Below the pieces are notes generated by a model. It was given only the letters and a program-made list of their open reading frames with translations. It made no database searches and was not told the origin of the DNA. Position numbers and translations under genes: made by a program. A stretch of 64,000 bases of DNA from Syntrophales bacterium (GTDB lineage: Bacteria; Desulfobacterota; Syntrophia; Syntrophales; UBA2210): positions 16,366 through 80,365 of the forward strand of contig JALNXD010000002.1 of NCBI GenBank assembly GCA_023230565.1. Reading direction: 5' to 3'. Shown one piece after another: positions 17,363-60,296 of the stretch (its first letter is position 1; every line of letters begins with the position of its first letter).

Positions 17363-18563
17363 AATTCGTATAATAACGGGAAATGAAGCAGCAGCGCTTG
17401 CCGTTACCCTGTGTGAACCGAAGGTGGTTGCCGCATATCCGATCACTCCTCAGACAAAAATATCGGAACTCCTCTCGATGTATGTGGAAACCGGAACCCT
17501 GAAAGCTGAATATGTCCGTGTAGAAAGCGAGCATTCTGCCCTGACTGTCCTGATTTCAGCCTCTACGGTAGGTGCCAGAGTGTTCACAGCAACAAGTTCC
17601 AACGGCCTTCTTTATATGCACGAACAGCTTCATTGGGCCGCCGGATCGAGGCTGCCTATCGTCATGTGCTGTGTAAACCGGGGCGTAGGCGCCCCATGGT
17701 CTATTTTCAATGATCAGCAGGATTCGATGTCCCAGCGGGATACAGGGTGGATCCAGCTTTACTGCAGAGATAATCAGGAAATCATTGATACAGTAATTCA
17801 GGCCTACCGGATTGCCGAGCAGGTCTACATACCGACGATGGTCTGTTATGACGGGTTTGTCCTTTCACACACCATGATGCCCGTGGAAATTCCGGAAGCG
17901 GCACAGGTAAAAAATTTTCTACCCCCCTACCGCCCTCATACATTCCTTGATCCGGAGCGGCCGCGCACAATTAATCCGGTATTCTTCCCCTGGCGGCGGG
18001 AAAACGCCGAAGGCGTGCTCTGCGACGGTTACATGGAGATGCGCTACAAACTCCAGCGCGATTTTGATACTTCACTGGAAGTGATAGAAGACGTCAACGT
18101 ACAATACACAGATCTATTCGGGCGCAATTATGGCGGTCTCATCTGGGAATACCAAACCGGGGACGCAGACATTTTTGTCACCGGCATGGGGTCAATCGCC
18201 CAGGAAGCGACACTTGCCGTTGATGCACTGAGGGAAGAGGGGATCAAAATCGGCGTTGTCGGTATCCGCTCCTTCAGGCCATTTCCCAAAGAAAAATTAA
18301 TTCATGCTTTCAGCAGGGCCCGTATCATTATCGTGTTTCAAAAAGCGATAAGTTACGGAAATGAAGGAGGCCTTTCTACGGAAGTGAAAGCGGCGCTATA
18401 CGGCTCCGGAATTGATGCGCCGGTACATGATTATATAGCCGGCCTGGGGGGGCGCGACGTAAAAACGCGGGAACTCATCGCAGCAATACGGGACACCCTT
18501 GAGCGTTCCGGCGGCGGTGACTGCAAAAATAAAACAACCTGGCTCAACTGCCACAGGGGATAA
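17355..18563 (+). CDS. 2-oxoacid:ferredoxin oxidoreductase, alpha subunit
   Basis: 402 aa. GNEAAALA...AAYPITPQT N-terminus typical of POR/VOR alpha. It overlaps the delta subunit by 8 nt. Confidence 0.9.
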   Translation: MSEIRIITGNEAAALAVTLCEPKVVAAYPITPQTKISELLSMYVETGTLKAEYVRVESEHSALTVLISASTVGARVFTATSSNGLLYMHEQLHWAAGSRLPIVMCCVNRGVGAPWSIFNDQQDSMSQRDTGWIQLYCRDNQEIIDTVIQAYRIAEQVYIPTMVCYDGFVLSHTMMPVEIPEAAQVKNFLPPYRPHTFLDPERPRTINPVFFPWRRENAEGVLCDGYMEMRYKLQRDFDTSLEVIEDVNVQYTDLFGRNYGGLIWEYQTGDADIFVTGMGSIAQEATLAVDALREEGIKIGVVGIRSFRPFPKEKLIHAFSRARIIIVFQKAISYGNEGGLSTEVKAALYGSGIDAPVHDYIAGLGGRDVKTRELIAAIRDTLERSGGGDCKNKTTWLNCHRG

Positions 18564-35298: not shown

Positions 35299-36339
35299 TT
35301 AAACCTCCGTCACTCTCGATAGGTATTCAGCCTTAAGGTGTCGATACATATTCATAAGAGCATTATTTGAGACTACGGCAAAGGACGTACTTACCATGAT
35401 TTTCTTTACTTCATTTCGGCTTATTTTTATTTTATGGCCGTCAAGCAGATCTTCATTCTGCTCATTAAGCTTTATCAAGGTCTTAATAGCCATAAATAAG
35501 GGCCAAAGGCAAAAAAGGCGGTATCTTACGCATGCTCTTGGAATATCCAGGGTATAGAATAATGCCTCGTCAAGATTTTCAAGAGCCAAATTCGTGAGAC
35601 GTTTGAAAATCCTCATGCATACTACCCGGTTTGATTTGATTTCATTTAAGTTTAGTGTTATTCCTTCCGCTTCAAAATAACTCTTTGGTACATAACACCA
35701 TCCCCGTCTTAAATCCGGGAAGAAATCTTTTGAAATATTCGTAAGCTGAAGCCCAATTCCAAACTTCACACTTCGTGATATCAATCTTTCTTCTATTTTT
35801 TCAGTAATGCGCGGCGCACCTTTGGAAAAAATCGATGTAATCATCAGCCCGACTGTTCCTGCCACATAATAGCAATAATGCTTCAGCTCCTCTTCCGTAT
35901 TCAGACATACAATGCTTCCTTCAGATGTTTTTTTCTGAAAATCAGCCATTCCGAGAGCCATTTCCTTCACATATTCCGATATAATATCTACATACCCAAC
36001 GGGCAGATCAAGAAGCTCCCTGAAGACGCGCGGCATATCACCTACAAGGACCGAATCATCGCAGACAGTACCGAAAGATACACTCTCCACAAAACTTCGA
36101 GTACGGGCATCCCACCCGGAGGACGGTGGGAAAAGACCGGCAAATGTGTTGAGATGCCCGATCTTTTTTTCTGCGGGTAATAATGGATCGTCTTCAAGGG
36201 TATCTGCAATTCGGCATAAAAGATATGCGATAAGAAGCGCCCGGTATACATCGCCTCTGAGAACCTGAATATTGATTGCAAATGTTCTTGAAACCTTAGC
36301 AAGGTGTTGTTCACATATTTTCAAGTCGTCGCCCTTCAT
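35299..36339 (-). CDS. squalene/phytoene synthase family protein
   Basis: VSRTFAINIQVL...CRIADTLEDD (first Asp-rich motif) and YCYYVAGTVG, typical of trans-isoprenyl diphosphate synthase head-to-head enzymes. Confidence 0.75.
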   Translation of the reverse strand: MKGDDLKICEQHLAKVSRTFAINIQVLRGDVYRALLIAYLLCRIADTLEDDPLLPAEKKIGHLNTFAGLFPPSSGWDARTRSFVESVSFGTVCDDSVLVGDMPRVFRELLDLPVGYVDIISEYVKEMALGMADFQKKTSEGSIVCLNTEEELKHYCYYVAGTVGLMITSIFSKGAPRITEKIEERLISRSVKFGIGLQLTNISKDFFPDLRRGWCYVPKSYFEAEGITLNLNEIKSNRVVCMRIFKRLTNLALENLDEALFYTLDIPRACVRYRLFCLWPLFMAIKTLIKLNEQNEDLLDGHKIKISRNEVKKIMVSTSFAVVSNNALMNMYRHLKAEYLSRVTEV

Positions 36340-36461
36340 GAATGCACATTCCTCTGCCTTTCACCAATATTCAGGACGTACTGTAAATAAATATTAGCGC
36401 TTATGTCAAAATTTTTATTGGAATTATAGGGAAAAGAAAATAAATAGAAAACAGGCGCACA

Positions 36462-36492
36462 CAAAAAGAAAGGGAGGCTTTAAAAGCCTCCC
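36462..36492 (-). terminator. intrinsic terminator ending the candidate sRNA
   Basis: Minus strand reads GGGAGGCTT-tta-AAGCCTCCC followed by TTTCTTTTTGT. No U-tract follows on the plus strand, so it is oriented for minus-strand transcripts. Confidence 0.78.
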
Positions 36493-36675
36493 TTACAAGG
36501 GGGGTTACCAACCAATGTTTTAACCCGTATCGGATAAACCGAACTTTCAACTGGTTGATTTAACTCAAATATTACCCTCGCACTCTCATTCCACTCACTG
36601 CACCATCCGAGGGTTTTAAACAATCGGTCGGTTCAAAGGTTTAAACCAGAAAATAGGAGGGATTTTCCGGTTCGA
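36462..36675 (-). ncRNA. candidate sigma54-dependent small RNA (~210 nt), unclassified
   Basis: It is bounded by the sigma54 promoter (36686-36701) and the terminator (36462-36492). No minus-strand ORF is present. A 5' hairpin AACCGGAAAAU[CCCUCCU]AUUUUCUGGUU lies at 36644-36672. Internal stems are ACCCUCG/CGAGGGU, GAACCGA/UCGGUU and GGGUUA/UAACCC. It is antisense to the porin leader at 13024-13059. Confidence 0.5.
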
Positions 36676-36685
36676 TATTGTCTAA

Positions 36686-36701
36686 AGCATTATTTATGCC
36701 A
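36686..36701 (-). promoter_or_regulatory. sigma54 (-24/-12) promoter
   Basis: Minus strand reads TGGCAT-AAATA-ATGCT against the consensus TGGCAC-N5-TTGCW. The canonical GG-N10-GC spacing is preserved. Confidence 0.55.
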
Positions 36702-37129: not shown

Positions 37130-38899
37130 ATGGAGCGAACAAAGCTTTCAAAATACATCATGCCCCTTACATTGTTTTTGGTGGTTGCAGTATTCATTGT
37201 GCTTATTTTGATCATGGGCTTCATGGATCTGCGAAGGCTTGACAGTACGCTGGTTGGATTCATGCAAAACAGAGGGCTTGACATAGTAAAAACAATTGAA
37301 AACGTGGCACAGGAAGATCTTGATTTTCTCCGTCTCACTCTTAAGGAGAACAGGAGCGAGCGCAGAATTTCGCCTATTCCTCTCTCGGATAAGGAATTTT
37401 CGATACAGGAATCCCTTGTAAAGGCCCTGGTTGACGTGGCGCGGGCAATTGACCTTAAATGGCACCAAAAAGATCTTTCGGAACAATCCCTTAAAGAAAT
37501 TGCTGCACTGGAAAAGTTGTCAATAATAGCAATATTTGATGAGCAGGGAGAAATTGTTCTTCAGAATAGAAAGTTCGATGAATCTTTCGCGGAAAAATCG
37601 GATTCAATGAAATCGGCTCAGGAAAAGATCATGATCGATCTTTTTGACCGTTTGGGGAATCTCGGTGAAATGGGCTATATTGCCCTTAAAAGGAAAGACG
37701 GCAGCGGAACCATTCTGATTGCACTTGATGCAGAGAAACTTAAATACTGGGGAACAAAAATAGCTGTTATCAAAGTAATAGAAGAAATAGGATGGGAGCA
37801 GGAGCTCGCCTATTTAACTGTCGCAGATAATGATGGGAAAGTGCTCGGCACTGTAGGGAAATTACCACAAGAACACCAAGAACGATCACGTATTGTGACT
37901 GATGAGATACTGTCGGGGCGGCTTGATATATTAAGCCGCAAACTAAGACATAAGGATGCGGATTTTCTTGATATCATCGCTCCGCTTCATCTCGATAGCT
38001 CTGTTATAGGGTATGCGCGTTTAGGTTTAAAGTGGGATCGGGCCCGGGCAATACTTGCAGAAAACAGAAACAGAATGATAATCAGCACAATTCTGATTAT
38101 ATTGATCGGAATTATGTCAATTACAGCCCTTTATCAAAATCAAAGCAGACATTTGGCAAGAATGGATGAAATGGAAAAGAAGCTCCGTCGAGCTGAGAGA
38201 CTTTCCGCGCTTGGCCAGCTTGCTGCCGGTGTAGCCCACGAGATCAGGAATCCCCTAAATGCCGTAAGCATTGCGAGTCAGAGACTACAGAGAGAATATG
38301 CCCCCGCAAATGAAGAGGAAAAGAAAGAATTCTACCGTATAACTGGCATTATTCGTGAAGAAATCAGGCGTCTCAACAATATTATCGAAGAGTTTGTAAC
38401 TTTTTTCCGGATAAGGAAAATGGAACTGAAGAGCCATCCCCTTGAGGAAGTCATATTGAAAATAGCAAATCTAGTAGAAGGGGAATTTAAATCCAGGAAT
38501 ATTGACTTGAAAACATATCTGAACGGTCATAATTTGCGAGTAATGATGGATTCTGATAAATTGACGCAGGCCTTCCATAATTTACTAAAAAATGCGATGG
38601 AATCGATACCCGCATCAGGCATAATTTCCATTTCCGTGGATCCTGTCAATGGCGACCGGCTGGCAGTGAGAATTTCCGATACCGGGACAGGGCTGACGGA
38701 AGAAGAAATTGAACAGATATTCAATCCCGAATATACCACCAAAGAAAAAGGTCTCGGTTTGGGTCTGACGCTTGCACATGAAATTATTCAAAGTCATAAA
38801 GGCGAAATATCCGTGACAAGCCGAAAAGGTTCGGGAACGACATTTGAGATCATCTTACCCAGAGATCATGAAGATTCGAAAGAATTTCAGGAAAGTTAA
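37130..38899 (+). CDS. sensor histidine kinase (two TM helices flanking a ~280-aa extracytoplasmic domain; HisKA + HATPase_c)
   Basis: TM1 LTLFLVVAVFIVLILIMGF and TM2 MIISTILIILIGIMSITALY. H-box AAGVAHEIRNPLNAV. N and G boxes (NLLKNAMES, DTGTGL, GLGLGL). The ATG at 37130 with upstream GAGG is preferred over the GTG at 37124. Confidence 0.88.
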   Translation: MERTKLSKYIMPLTLFLVVAVFIVLILIMGFMDLRRLDSTLVGFMQNRGLDIVKTIENVAQEDLDFLRLTLKENRSERRISPIPLSDKEFSIQESLVKALVDVARAIDLKWHQKDLSEQSLKEIAALEKLSIIAIFDEQGEIVLQNRKFDESFAEKSDSMKSAQEKIMIDLFDRLGNLGEMGYIALKRKDGSGTILIALDAEKLKYWGTKIAVIKVIEEIGWEQELAYLTVADNDGKVLGTVGKLPQEHQERSRIVTDEILSGRLDILSRKLRHKDADFLDIIAPLHLDSSVIGYARLGLKWDRARAILAENRNRMIISTILIILIGIMSITALYQNQSRHLARMDEMEKKLRRAERLSALGQLAAGVAHEIRNPLNAVSIASQRLQREYAPANEEEKKEFYRITGIIREEIRRLNNIIEEFVTFFRIRKMELKSHPLEEVILKIANLVEGEFKSRNIDLKTYLNGHNLRVMMDSDKLTQAFHNLLKNAMESIPASGIISISVDPVNGDRLAVRISDTGTGLTEEEIEQIFNPEYTTKEKGLGLGLTLAHEIIQSHKGEISVTSRKGSGTTFEIILPRDHEDSKEFQES

Positions 38900-38901
38900 C
38901 C

Positions 38902-40263
38902 ATGAAATCATTGAATATACTTGTCGTCGAAGATGGGCAATCGCAAAGGGAAATGCTTAGAGATTTCCTTGTGAAGGAGGGTCATCTTATACGCGAAGCT
39001 GATACAGGCACCAAGGCTTTACAGGAAGTTCTTGAAGGACATTTCGATTTGGTTCTTCTCGATTACAAAATGCCTGGAATGAATGGACTCGAAACGCTGA
39101 AGAAAATCAGGGAAATAAACCCCGAAATCGATATTGTTATGATGACGGCCTACGGAACGATTGAAACAGCCGTGGAAGCAATGAAGAACGGTGCCGTCGA
39201 CTACATAACCAAACCGATAGACCTGGATGAACTTATCATTTTGATAGACAGGATCTCGGAGCGCCGCATACTTATAAAAGAAAACGAGATCCTCCGGCAC
39301 AAGCTCTGGAAAAAAGGTATGAAAAGTTCACAGATAATTTACCAGAGCTCAAAAATGGAACAACTTATCAATATGGCAGGCCGAGTTGCCGACAGTAAAG
39401 CAACTGTTCTTATTGAAGGAGAAAGCGGCACCGGAAAAGAACTTTTCGCCCGCCTTATTCACACTATGAGTCCCCGGTCCGAGAATCCCATGATGGTAGT
39501 TAATTGCGGCGCTCTTCCTGAAACGCTGCTTGAAAGCGAACTTTTTGGACATGAGAAAGGCGCCTTTACCGGCGCTACGGGCAGAAGAATCGGACGGTTT
39601 GAAGAAGCTGACGGAGGAACCCTTTTTCTGGATGAAATTGGAGAGCTTTCTTCCCCGGTTCAGGTCAAATTGTTAAGATTTCTCCAGGAAAAAGAATTTC
39701 AGAGACTTGGAGGCAATCAGACACTTAAATCGGATGTAAGAATTATCAGTGCCACGAATCGCAATCTCGAAGAGCAGATGAGAAGGGGACTTTTCAGAGA
39801 TGACCTTTATTATCGGTTGAATGTAGTGGTAATGAAAATTCCACCGCTCCGGGAAAGAAAAGAAGATATTCCTCTTTTAATTCAGCATTTTATAAATGTA
39901 TTTGCCCTCGAAAACAAGAAGGACATTAAAGGTGCAAGCCGGGAGGCACTCGATATGCTGTTGAAGTATGAATATCCTGGCAATGTGAGGGAGCTGGAAA
40001 ATATTATCGAAAGAGCTGCAGTCATCACGAGAGATTCTGTGATTTCAATCCGTGATCTTCCTTTCAGAGACGAATCCGATCATGGTATGGGCGAATCAAA
40101 AAGACATGGCAGCCTTATGAAAGATTCCGTTGAAACACTGGAATGTCAACTGATTGAACAAGCCCTTGGAGAAGCGGGTCAAAACCAGACAAAGGCAGCC
40201 GACCTTCTCGGAATCACGGAAAGAACCCTTCGATACAAGATAAAAAAATACGGACTGAAATAA
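38902..40263 (+). CDS. sigma54-dependent response regulator (NtrC-family bacterial enhancer-binding protein)
   Basis: REC domain ([13 protein letters not shown]). AAA+ domain with GESGTGKE, the sigma54-contacting GAFTGA loop, and DEIGEL. C-terminal Fis-type HTH ([24 protein letters not shown]). Confidence 0.93.
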
Positions 40264-40285: not shown

Positions 40286-41416
40286 TTACCCAGGCACAAG
40301 ATCAATAGCCACTACTTCAGGAGGCGACAGAAATCTCATTGGAGGGCCCCAGGTGCCGGATCCTCTGCTGACATAAAGAATATGCCCTTCCCCGAGATCA
40401 TATCTGCCTGCAAGATAGGGATAAAAAAGCGCTGTTATCAAGTTAAAAGGTGCAATCTGACCTTTATGTGTATGGCCTGAAAGCTGAAGATCAAAAGGTG
40501 TTTCACCGTTTTGCTGCGCTATTGTAGGTTGATGCTTCAGAAGGATCCGGAAGTAATCTCCTTGAAAACATTTCATATTTTTCATTTCCGACTGATTTCC
40601 GTTCAACCCGAATCCTTTCTCTGCCGGGTCGTCCACGCCGGCTATGAGTATCGATCCTTTCACTAACGCGGCCTCATCACGCAGGAGCCTGAATCCCGCC
40701 GCTTCAATAAACGCGGTCGCCTGATGTATGCCCGCATAGAATTCATGGTTTCCCGTTACGGCAAATTTTCCGTAAGGAGCATTGATGTCCTTCAAGAAAG
40801 AAGAAAGATGATGAAGATCATTCATTTCGCCATCCACGAGGTCACCTGTCGAAACCAAAATGTCAGGGGCCAATTCCTCTACTTTGTTCAAAATTCGCAA
40901 CAAGCGATCTTCACGCATTATAAGGCCGAGATGTACATCTGAAATTTGTACGATGCGGATTGAATCTGCGGCGGATTGAATAATGGGCGTTTTAATTTTG
41001 ACGGTGGTGACACCAATGGTTTTCGCCTCAAAATATCCGTAAAAACAGATAAAGGCACCGGCTGTAATGGCGAATGCGTAAATCAGGCGGATCACTCCGG
41101 AAACTTCGCTCTTTTGTACTGTGCCCGTCAGAAAAACTGTTACCCAAAATACATCGAAGACTAAAAGGAAGCAAAAGCTCAGAAAGATAAATCCCATCCA
41201 GCTATAGCTTAGAAATGCCAAATGGCGAAGCCAGCTGTCCCATCCGGATTGTTCAAGCACCCTGATCAATATGGGGGAGACGACCATGAACATCAAAAAC
41301 AATGCAACGATGAGGTTCACAGGGAACCCAAAGCCGAAGAGGTATTTCAACTTCAGGAAAAAATACAGATGTACTCCTCCATACACCAACAAAAGGGCGA
41401 TTAGAAATAAAGCCAT
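40286..41416 (-). CDS. membrane-anchored metallophosphoesterase
   Basis: Four N-terminal hydrophobic helices, then calcineurin-like motifs (ISDVHLG, GDLVDG, GNHE, SGHTHKGQ). Confidence 0.8.
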   Translation of the reverse strand: MALFLIALLLVYGGVHLYFFLKLKYLFGFGFPVNLIVALFLMFMVVSPILIRVLEQSGWDSWLRHLAFLSYSWMGFIFLSFCFLLVFDVFWVTVFLTGTVQKSEVSGVIRLIYAFAITAGAFICFYGYFEAKTIGVTTVKIKTPIIQSAADSIRIVQISDVHLGLIMREDRLLRILNKVEELAPDILVSTGDLVDGEMNDLHHLSSFLKDINAPYGKFAVTGNHEFYAGIHQATAFIEAAGFRLLRDEAALVKGSILIAGVDDPAEKGFGLNGNQSEMKNMKCFQGDYFRILLKHQPTIAQQNGETPFDLQLSGHTHKGQIAPFNLITALFYPYLAGRYDLGEGHILYVSRGSGTWGPPMRFLSPPEVVAIDLVPG

Positions 41417-59253: not shown

Positions 59254-59317
59254 GAAAGATGATTCCCAATATCCAGATGAAAGTGCGTAAAGACACACTG
59301 CTGCTGCACGCAGGTTA

Positions 59318-59512
59318 TTATGTTTTTCCAGGCACAAAAATCCACAGGAGAATGTAGAGAACTACCCCGAAACCAAAGAATATCACACAGAGGCAAAAGG
59401 CAAGCCGCCACACCCAAGAAGGAAGCGGAGTATGTTCACCAAGCCCTCCGCAGACGCCTCCGATCCACCTGTCTTCACTGGATCTTGTAAGATTTCGAAG
59501 CCATTCAACCAT
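59318..59512 (-). CDS. PspC-domain small membrane protein
   Basis: LTRSSEDRWIGGVCGGLGEH...WRLAFCL...VVLYILLWIFVP matches the PspC domain pattern. Confidence 0.7.
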   Translation of the reverse strand: MVEWLRNLTRSSEDRWIGGVCGGLGEHTPLPSWVWRLAFCLCVIFFGFGVVLYILLWIFVPGKT

Positions 59513-59564
59513 GTTCGTCTACTGAATCCGAAGAGTTCAAAGCAACTAGTTGCCATCTAGAGGC

Positions 59565-59600
59565 AAAACTAAAACAGGGTTACAGTGCAGCCTGTAACCC
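59565..59600 (-). terminator. intrinsic terminator of tRNA-Val
   Basis: Minus strand reads GGGTTACAG-gctgca-CTGTAACCC followed by TGTTTTAGTTTT, about 10 nt after the tRNA 3' end. Confidence 0.72.
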
Positions 59601-59610
59601 CTTGAAATCA

Positions 59611-59685
59611 TGGTAGGCGGTACTGGATTTGAACCAGTGACTTCTACCGTGTGAAGGTAGCACTCTCCCGCTGAGTTAACCGCCC
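59611..59685 (-). tRNA. tRNA-Val (anticodon CAC), CCA encoded
   Basis: Manual cloverleaf: acceptor GGGCGGU/ACCGCCU, D arm ACUC-AGCGGGA-GAGU, anticodon arm CUACC-UUCACAC-GGUAG, variable AAGUC, T arm ACUGG-UUCAAAU-CCAGU, discriminator A, CCA. 75 nt in total. Confidence 0.93.
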
Positions 59686-59699
59686 CGATAAGGTCTGTG

Positions 59700-59728
59700 A
59701 CATTAGCGCAAAGCACCTATGATTGCAA
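59700..59728 (-). promoter_or_regulatory. sigma70-type promoter candidate for tRNA-Val
   Basis: Minus strand reads TTGCAA (59728-59723), 17-nt spacer, TAATGT (59705-59700), ending about 15 nt upstream of the mature tRNA 5' end. Confidence 0.5.
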
Positions 59729-59832
59729 GTCAAAAAATCCTGGCAGAAAAGGAGAAAAAGAAAGAATGGCGATGTATCGATTGAAGGCATTGGTTGGGAA
59801 AAAATCGATTTCTCTTCATTTTAATTCATCAA

Positions 59833-59861
59833 TTGACGGCGGATCTTTTTTTCTTTACTAT
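59833..59861 (+). promoter_or_regulatory. sigma70-type promoter candidate for the 97-aa ORF
   Basis: TTGACG (59833-59838), 17-nt spacer, TACTAT (59856-59861). Confidence 0.5.
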
Positions 59862-59899
59862 TAGCAAAGATCGAAACATCGGTCCGAGGGAGGCCAAAG

Positions 59900-60193
59900 A
59901 TGAAGGCAAGTATCATTTTCACTGGTACAGGCCCTATCCTTATTCTTACCTCATATGAATCTCTGACTGATCCAAAATTAATCGATAAGCTGGCATCGAA
60001 AGGGATAAAAAAATTTATCGCAACGGAACTTCCTATTGAAGAGGTAGAAAAAAGGTATAAGGAACATTTTAAAATCGTATTGGATGATCTTCATCAAACG
60101 GATGATCTGCGGGTTCTTGACTATAACGGTCATAACATTCTTGAATCTTTTTCCTTCGCTGAAATGGGAAAACCGGTGTATTACGAACCGTAA
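59900..60193 (+). CDS. hypothetical 97-aa cytoplasmic protein
   Basis: A good promoter plus GGGAGG 6 nt before the ATG. No motif that I recognise. Confidence 0.5.
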   Translation: MKASIIFTGTGPILILTSYESLTDPKLIDKLASKGIKKFIATELPIEEVEKRYKEHFKIVLDDLHQTDDLRVLDYNGHNILESFSFAEMGKPVYYEP

Positions 60194-60266
60194 GATATCT
60201 CTCGCACATCAGGAACAGCGGAAACTGCGTAGAATCTCCTGTTACCGAGCACACCGGCCTTAAAGG

Positions 60267-60296
60267 TAATAAGTGATGCTGTCGCATCACTTATTA
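60267..60296. other. perfect 13-bp stem-loop between convergent genes (overlaps the hydratase stop codon)
   Basis: TAATAAGTGATGC-tgtc-GCATCACTTATTA. No clean U-tract on either side. Confidence 0.5.

Follow-up and report, generated by a model that had tools for sequence, protein, structure and literature searches.

A predicted sigma-54-dependent small RNA with anti-Shine-Dalgarno motifs beside a ZraPSR-like two-component operon in Syntrophales

Results

A 64,000-nucleotide (nt) stretch of DNA from a Syntrophales bacterium (contig JALNXD010000002.1, positions 16,366 to 80,365) was analyzed; it is referred to here as the window, and all window-wide counts cover these 64 kb. Between a minus-strand squalene/phytoene-synthase-like gene and a plus-strand kinase/regulator operon, the window contains what is, judging from comparative sequence data, very probably a genuine, conserved, activator-dependent small RNA (sRNA) gene. 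The explanation that we favor as a whole, with some reserve, is that of a trans-acting sRNA of ~210 nt under the control of the neighboring sensor and activator, which would repress translation by anti-Shine-Dalgarno (anti-SD) pairing and serve as an arm of a stress response. A first-pass annotation had proposed that this region holds a sigma-54-dependent minus-strand transcription unit lacking an open reading frame (ORF) and lying under a divergent kinase and activator. That proposal is supported by the conservation, in related loci, of an upstream palindrome, the promoter, a 5′ hairpin (SL1), and terminators.

Promoter and Upstream Palindrome

The sigma-54 promoter named in the first-pass annotation, TGGCATAAATAATGCT, is present on the minus strand, with its GG and GC elements 10 base pairs (bp) apart. 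The histidine kinase and the NtrC-type activator with an intact GAFTGA loop are both immediately divergent, as had been stated. The GAFTGA motif lies at residue 220 of the regulator, which is the sole GAFTGA activator in the window. An enhancer-like palindrome, TTCGACAAAATTGTCGAA, first surfaced in a blastn comparison of the intergenic region and recurs upstream of the kinase gene in many loci. It is the one occurrence of CGACA-N4-TGTCG in the window, and its consensus, (T)TCGACA-N4-TGTCGA(A), is present in 65 non-redundant orthologous loci.

For the comparison, kinase orthologs were aligned, and 160 loci were retrieved with them from collections of genomes and metagenomes. Ninety-six orthologous loci, each with at least 450 nt of DNA upstream of the kinase, were scanned systematically for CGACA-N4-TGTCG together with [TCA]GG[CT]A[CT]-N5-nTGC[ATC] on the strand opposite the kinase. 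Palindrome and promoter at proper spacing, with the promoter pointing away from the kinase, were found in 71 of the 96 loci. A further 14 carried the promoter with a degenerate or absent palindrome, bringing the promoter total to 85, and only 8 carried neither element; as background, ~0.09 matches to the promoter pattern occur per kb and strand.

In nearly all loci, the palindrome center and the promoter GG are separated by 161–190 bp; in the window, the distance is 168 bp. Such geometry would be expected of a bacterial enhancer that acts on a sigma-54 promoter, and its fixity is the strongest single argument for a real promoter served by the adjacent regulator, which would bind the palindrome. 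The distances cluster at ∼161–164, 171–178, and 182–190 bp (around 163, 175, and 186 bp), with the window's 168 bp falling between clusters, and the steps of approximately one helical turn suggest a face-of-the-helix constraint. RNA, palindrome, and promoter were each found only once in the window. A looser palindrome, GACATTTTTGTC, occurs at 18168-18179 without the outer C/G of the enhancer consensus; it is probably due to chance because no sigma-54 pattern occurs elsewhere in the window.

Structure and Conservation of the Predicted RNA

The 214-nt RNA delimited by promoter and terminator folds with a minimum free energy (MFE) of −66.4 kcal/mol (z = −3.07 versus shuffles). SL1, with its 11-bp stem and CCCUCCU anti-SD loop, was found where the first-pass annotation had placed it, and the C-run noted there corresponds to AACCCCCC at ∼36506-36499, directly 5′ of the terminator. 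The terminator, which had been described as oriented for the minus strand only, was detected by the scan on that strand alone and consists of an 11-bp stem followed by UCUUUUUG.

The internal stems that had been listed fared less uniformly. The helix ACCCUCG/CGAGGGU is present in the window but is conserved only in the closest relatives: it reads GCCCUUA/UGAGGGU in L121, the closest relative of the window's locus (76% kinase identity), and UCCGUUC/GAACGGA in L085, and is 56% paired over 7 sequences. The stems GAACCGA/UCGGUU and GGGUUA/UAACCC are likewise present in the window but are not conserved beyond L121 and overlap a better conserved long-range helix, P2. This helix, CCGACCGAU/AUUGGUUGG, is 93.7% paired in 7 long-form sequences, and its changes are one-sided (G-U to G-C or A-U) across the six sequences that have it.

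At loci of the Syntrophales type, a structured RNA that ends in an intrinsic terminator comes after the promoter, and no ORF with a ribosome-binding site was found after the promoter in any sRNA-type locus, the window included. The terminators of most relatives lie either ∼100–150 nt (short form) or ∼200–250 nt (long form, including the window) downstream of the promoter. The RNAs of the window and 19 other loci, here called type A, share a 5′ hairpin in which the loop sequence (C/U)CCUCCU is retained, and UUAAACC comes after the hairpin. The stem of this hairpin varies in sequence (AACCGG/CUGGUU, AGUCAG/CUGGCU, GUCAAGAAC/GUUCUGAC, UGCCGAAAA/UUUUCGGC), and 90.6% of its cells are paired in an alignment of 18 sequences (A3), as against 21–60% in slid-partner controls. 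Compensatory changes occur at 5 of 9 pairs, and the observed covariation score was reached by no shuffle. The alignment of relatives' intergenic regions that had been suggested as a check bore out the SL1 stem.

A covariance model of the SL1 module (R1) matched one copy per locus, at the expected place, in 20 loci, and two further members were found. The window holds a single copy scoring 68.6 bits, the second best of the 20. By contrast with these conserved parts, the interior of the RNA is not conserved and carries indels of arbitrary length. Long-form relatives have a C-rich or AAACCUCC single strand before the terminator, and in several type-A relatives a further hairpin displays an additional CCUCC or UCUCC loop.

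A Second Architecture and a Shared Anti-Shine-Dalgarno Motif

A second type of RNA, type B, is represented by ∼40 distinct sequences of ∼100–125 nt from Smithella-, Syntrophus-, and Syntrophaceae-like loci (L001-L003, L005, L009, L013, L015, L042, and L098-L146; for example L042:3540-3653, minus strand) and is likewise preceded by this enhancer and promoter. Their architecture combines a hairpin, whose ACGGGCAUG loop never varies, with a CCUCCUG element that is single-stranded and likewise invariant and with a terminator of the form GGGGAGnn; a further, small hairpin is optional. Compensatory changes occur at 8 of 16 predicted pairs. The CCUCCUG element occupies a position equivalent to that of the window's C-rich stretch before the terminator.

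Both types hold ACGGG and CCGAU/AUYGG words, with a different order of arms, so that any homology of types A and B that goes further than promoter, anti-SD motif, and terminator is no more than a possibility. Among motifs, only the anti-SD pentamer, which sits in loops or single strands, recurs in both architectures. CCUCC is present in 43 of 52 non-redundant RNA bodies of both types, against 2.9 expected. The first-pass annotation had recognized no described RNA family and had recommended a search of Rfam, and that search agrees with it: with Rfam 15, no family other than tRNA reached its gathering score in the window, relaxation to E ≤ 10 added chance-level matches to the terminator hairpin only, and 11 relatives' loci gave no match to either RNA type, only to tRNA.

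Further placements of the motif were noted. In L009 (3462-3500), L094, and L153, CCUCCUU directly follows the terminator stem (...CCUCCCCCAUCCUCCUUU), and an anti-SD motif would therefore lie in the 3′ tail of the RNA. In type B, GGGGAG in the 5′ arm of the terminator and the seed CUCCUC are complementary (alignment A7, columns 101-137), and pairing between them, as an alternative, could mask the seed or compete with termination. In the corresponding region of the window (36470-36507), the C-run would pair with GGGAGG only imperfectly.

Coordinates of the features are collected in Table 1.

Table 1. Features of the window and of related loci
Feature	Position	Strand	Remarks
Enhancer-like palindrome TTCGACAAAATTGTCGAA	36860-36877	.	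Presumed site of the adjacent NtrC-type regulator; conserved in orthologous loci
Sigma-54 (−24/−12) promoter TGGCAT-AAATA-ATGCT (TGGCATAAATAATGCT)	36701-36686	-	GG at 36700-36699, GC at 36688-36687
Predicted sRNA	36462-36675	-	∼211-214 nt; 5′ end from promoter geometry, 3′ end from terminator U-tract
SL1, 5′ hairpin	36672-36644	-	11-bp stem with one G-U pair; 7-nt loop CCCUCCU at 36661-36655
Single-stranded UAAACCUUUG after SL1	36634-36643	-	Consensus TTAAACCCTTG kept across type-A sequences
Long-range helix P2, 5′ arm CCGACCGAU	36631-36623	-	Pairs with 36516-36508
Long-range helix P2, 3′ arm AUUGGUUGG	36516-36508	-	Pairs with 36631-36623
Single-stranded C-rich stretch UAACCCCCCUUGU	36495-36507	-	Directly 5′ of terminator; relatives carry AAACCUCC
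Intrinsic terminator AAGGGAGGCUU-UUA-AAGCCUCCCUU, then UCUUUUUG	36462-36494	-	Stem 36494-36470, 11 bp, G+C-rich
Sigma-70-type promoter TTGACA-18-TACAGT of the synthase-like gene	36380-36409	-	Not part of the sRNA
Squalene/phytoene-synthase-like gene	35299-36339	-	SQS_PSY; scores under the squalene-synthase equivalog cut-off
Sensor histidine kinase	37130-38899	+	HisKA and HATPase_c, large periplasmic domain; presumed sensor of the circuit
NtrC-family response regulator	38902-40263	+	REC, Sigma54_activat/AAA+, AAA_lid, HTH_8; presumed activator of the sRNA promoter
Operon-heading Metal_resist-like gene	L121:2558-2998, L084:2507-2947, L094:2549-3004, L086:2516-2959	+

Protein Counterparts in Orthologous Loci

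At distant orthologous loci (Desulfobacterales, Syntrophobacteraceae, and Desulforhabdus; kinase identity 30–38%), the promoter is followed by a gene for a secreted protein of ∼150 amino acids with two LTxxQ motifs. This protein matches the Pfam families Metal_resist and LTXXQ, of the ZraP/CpxP/Spy kind, and most such loci carry the same palindrome; a divergent LTXXQ gene behind a sigma-54 promoter is found in L008, L010, L012, and L014. In L121 and several other loci, a gene for a secreted Metal_resist/LTXXQ-like protein of ∼146–151 amino acids heads the kinase operon, between palindrome and kinase. The window has lost this gene, which its closest relative keeps: the spacer between palindrome and kinase measures only ∼250 bp, and tblastn revealed no LTXXQ-like gene or remnant in the 64 kb. 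In the window's genome, the RNA would be the only local output that the system has left.

Given that the same promoter drives a ZraP/CpxP/Spy-like protein elsewhere and that the kinase operon of the closest relative is headed by a ZraP-like protein, the RNA would most likely serve as the post-transcriptional arm of a ZraPSR-like stress response. Its assignment to an envelope or metal stress response is a plausible one, to which we give slightly less than an even chance. The module looks ZraPSR-like in layout and output and not orthologous to ZraPSR. As a more speculative proposal, held tentatively and with more doubt than belief, the Syntrophales may have kept the kinase, activator, enhancer, and promoter of a ZraPSR-like module and swapped the LTXXQ product for a family of anti-SD sRNAs.

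Discussion

Proposed Mechanism

In the proposed circuit, the membrane kinase would sense a signal, probably periplasmic or envelope-related, and phosphorylate the NtrC-type regulator, which would then bind TTCGACA-N4-TGTCGAA, the conserved site ∼170 bp upstream. As established sigma-54 biology would have it, the GAFTGA-bearing AAA+ domain of the regulator would open the sigma-54 holoenzyme complex at TGGCAT-N5-ATGCT. The sequence features predict that transcription starts ∼12 nt past the GC element, near 36675, and stops at the terminator near 36465. The CCCUCCU loop of SL1, proposed as seed 1, and the C-rich stretch at 36495-36507, proposed as seed 2, would pair with the ribosome-binding sites of target messengers and repress their translation. 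This seed model was adopted because the anti-SD pentamer alone is common to both architectures, because the motif sits in loops or single strands on freely changing stems, and because the same design provides the redundant seeds of the alpha-r14/NfeR1 sRNAs (PMC10746234). We lean slightly toward anti-SD pairing as the mode of action of the RNA.

Several observations weigh against this reading. TGGCAY-N5-WTGCW has a single match in 64 kb where 0.25 would be expected, and at least one match occurred in 24 of 100 shuffles, so that the sigma-54 match by itself is not significant; rpoN is absent from the window. An orthologous kinase/regulator locus on a 1.8-Mb metagenome contig (L162:2610-3010) has no palindrome, sigma-54 promoter, or sRNA, so that the two-component system does not require the element. 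The two kinase homologs located on megabase contigs (P0117 and P0119) both belong to metagenome assemblies and do not supply a cultured host; the element accompanies one of them and is missing from the other. Approximately half of the CCUCC occurrences are unpaired in single-sequence MFE folds. When the SL1 loop and the C-rich stretch were compared by RNAduplex with the 84 translation-initiation regions of the window, no target was obtained. The top-ranking genes encode an acetyl-CoA-synthetase-like protein, MsrAB, a metallo-beta-lactamase-fold protein, and an enoyl-CoA hydratase, none of them an envelope protein, and they rank high because they have strong Shine-Dalgarno sequences. Feedback on the divergent operon, of the kind known for Qrr and LuxO, was considered and rejected, given that no consistent pairing was seen across 18 loci. 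The synthase gene was also rejected as a target: pairing was not consistent, and several orthologs are without a strong Shine-Dalgarno sequence.

The link to ZraPSR has its own difficulties, which count on the same side. Against NCBIfam models, the regulator scored 498 bits with AtoC and 451 bits with ZraR (cut-off 760), both values lying below the equivalog cut-offs. The kinase scored 204 bits with ZraS (cut-off 479), over the transmitter half only, and slightly higher with AtoS, also below the cut-off; on these scores, regulator and kinase were rejected as ZraR and ZraS equivalogs. The sensor domain of the kinase, in which there are weak Cache-like hints only, is unrelated to that of ZraS as far as the two were compared, and the palindrome of the enterobacterial zraP-zraS intergenic region differs from CGACA-N4-TGTCG. 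Because equivalogy, sensor domain, and palindrome all differ from ZraPSR, the envelope-stress label derives from the LTXXQ proteins alone.

Alternative Explanations

The failure to find a specific mRNA target, whether among the window's initiation regions, in the divergent operon, or in the synthase gene, could also be explained by a sigma-54-dependent noncoding RNA (ncRNA) that does not pair with ribosome-binding sites and acts instead by titrating a protein or as a sponge or decoy for RNA or G-rich sequences. Such a role would agree with the potential masking of the type-B seed CUCCUC by the terminator arm GGGGAG of the same RNA, and with the invariant type-B loop ACGGGCAUG, which no anti-SD model explains. 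CsrA/RsmA-type proteins bind GGA motifs, however, and the exposed loops carry C/U-rich CCUCC and no such motifs. The one motif that the two architectures have in common is the anti-SD pentamer, again in loops and single strands, and anti-SD loops are proven base-pairing seeds elsewhere (PMC10746234); a non-pairing role is accordingly judged unlikely, although it has points in its favor. That the region encodes a small protein or a dual-function RNA is exceedingly improbable. Mechanical ORFs of 42–49 amino acids with TTG starts do overlap it, but a coding function is unlikely because no sRNA-type locus has an ORF with a ribosome-binding site after the promoter and because the central region is unconserved, with indels of arbitrary length; the conserved parts are helical and show nucleotide-level covariation. 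A chance or decayed feature, in which a promoter-like string and hairpins would give no transcript in this genome, is scarcely credible either. The expectation of 0.25 promoter patterns per window would allow for it, as would the loss from the window of the LTXXQ gene kept by the closest relative, which implies that the locus was remodeled. Against it, all elements are intact and score as they do in relatives, as the R1 score illustrates, and palindrome, promoter, and terminator all stand at canonical spacing.

The first-pass annotation had offered a different alternative, namely that the element, transcribed from the sigma-54 promoter, serves as a 5′ leader or attenuator for the synthase-like gene, which read-through of the terminator would control. 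This gene is indeed co-oriented, starts 125 nt past the terminator, and is found after the RNA in 8 of the 20 type-A loci. In the other 12, however, the downstream genes are different, and in all three type-B loci checked, a convergent gene abuts the terminator. The synthase gene of the window has a TTGACw-N17/18-TAnAnT promoter of its own after the terminator, and one was recognized by eye in six of the other seven synthase loci (L121, L088, L081, L083, L148, and L151). Moreover, the terminator is strong, with an 11-bp G+C-rich stem and a U-tract, and the element tracks the kinase operon rather than the synthase gene. The varied downstream genes and the separate sigma-70-type promoter thus disfavor the leader, which is very unlikely, and the preferred explanation remains that of a trans-acting sRNA.

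Genomic Neighborhood

The intergenic region had been described as the largest noncoding gap of the window. By a crude measure, the length of a stretch without an ORF of at least 120 amino acids, it is the second largest because the stretch at 59254-60286 is bigger; the latter holds a tRNA gene at 59614-59685 (minus strand, Rfam 64.5 bits). On the other side of the operon, the regulator gene of the window is followed by a convergent metallophosphoesterase gene (40286-41416). In the long metagenome contigs L161 (6178-7750) and L162 (6218-7794), SIR2-family and TANGO2-family genes come after the kinase/regulator pair, and the 3′ neighborhood of the operon is therefore not conserved. Synteny of the synthase-like gene with the sRNA is confined to the clade nearest the window.

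Significance

Relatives of Syntrophus and Smithella within the Syntrophales are key syntrophic degraders of fatty acids, aromatic compounds, and alkanes in methanogenic systems. The RNA family described here is absent from Rfam and has clear signatures of sequence and structure. It offers a concrete circuit of sensor, activator, enhancer, sigma-54 promoter, and RNA that is testable without culture. The likely chief interest for specialists is evolutionary, in that whether one conserved enhancer and promoter drive a protein or an RNA depends on the lineage. If the output swap is true, the response would act by holding down the translation of a group of mRNAs, which presumably encode envelope proteins, instead of adding a periplasmic chaperone, and the output would be an sRNA family that comprises more than 50 distinct sequences in two or more architectures, with the window RNA as the sole local output. 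No new kind of mechanism is established, sigma-54-dependent sRNAs and anti-SD seeds both being known.

Comparison with Known Systems

Known sRNAs that depend on sigma-54 and an activator include Qrr with LuxO, GlmY/GlmZ with GlrR, CrcZ, NrsZ, and Pxr. Of the features that characterize sRNAs dependent on sigma-54 and a bacterial enhancer-binding protein, a conserved −24/−12 promoter and a GAFTGA activator with an upstream palindrome are found here, and a discrete noncoding transcript is predicted from the terminator and the absence of an ORF with a ribosome-binding site. Full-text literature searches returned no described Syntrophales, ZraR-linked, or anti-SD sigma-54 sRNA, nor this RNA itself. 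The window RNA is thus considered a new family of a known kind, because sRNAs of this dependence are known and this one was not found described. In Qrr1-5/LuxO of Vibrio and GlmY/GlmZ/GlrKR of Enterobacteriaceae, a sigma-54 promoter with an upstream activator site likewise directs a short terminator-ended sRNA (see also PMC3045617), and the sRNA gene adjoins the gene of the NtrC-type regulator, as in the window. By contrast, Qrr (RF00378) and GlmY/GlmZ have no likeness to the window RNA in sequence or structure and gave no Rfam cmscan match even at E ≤ 10. The seed of the window RNA is a generic anti-SD motif, and signal, regulon, and phylum differ.

Closer to the Syntrophales, four sigma-54-dependent ncRNAs have been predicted in Desulfovibrio vulgaris Hildenborough as targets of DVU0653, DVU0679, DVU1419, and DVU2359, and for DVU1419 the annotation lists an ncRNA as well as an envelope-stress target (PMC4641369, PMC3333781). 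These ncRNAs likewise come from the former Deltaproteobacteria, lie beside two-component sigma-54 activators, and were predicted from a promoter and a binding site. The tested site of DVU1419 is GTGTGCCATCGTTTGCACA, whereas that found here is CGACA-N4-TGTCG, and the D. vulgaris RNAs are without structural characterization. Identity of the palindrome with a known site was rejected, given that it differs from both the enterobacterial zraP-zraS spacer palindrome and the tested DVU1419 site.

With respect to mode of action, the nearest likeness is to alpha-r14/NfeR1, in which anti-SD loops on variable stems are redundant seeds that occlude the ribosome-binding sites of many mRNAs. There, CCUCCUCCC occurs in unpaired regions of three hairpins, and NfeR1 is activated by LsrB and repressed by NtrC, not activated through sigma-54 (PMC10746234). 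The window RNA similarly carries its anti-SD motif in a loop on a sequence-variable stem. In the window and its relatives, however, the motif is CCUCC(U), 5–7 nt long, in one or two loops together with a C-rich single strand, as opposed to the three CCUCCUCCC loops of alpha-r14/NfeR1. With one CCCUCCU loop and a C-run in the window and no Rfam match, membership in that family was rejected; the RNA would work similarly without being a member. CcsR and RsaE/RoxS are similar C-rich-loop sRNAs.

Envelope-stress sRNAs are known from the sigma-E response (MicA, RybB, and MicL) and from the Cpx response (CpxQ, derived from the cpxP mRNA). The logic would be the same here, in that a stress regulon comprises both a periplasmic chaperone-type protein and an sRNA by which the synthesis of envelope proteins is reduced. 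The sigma factor and regulators of those systems are different, no homology exists, and envelope targets of the window RNA are purely hypothetical. In layout, the counterpart is ZraPSR of Enterobacteriaceae, in which an operon of a kinase and a sigma-54 regulator is divergent from a sigma-54 promoter with a palindromic enhancer between them, the same arrangement as that found here (see also PMC4987338). The divergent product is ZraP in ZraPSR and an RNA in the window, and in distant orthologs of the present system it is a ZraP-like LTXXQ/Metal_resist protein.

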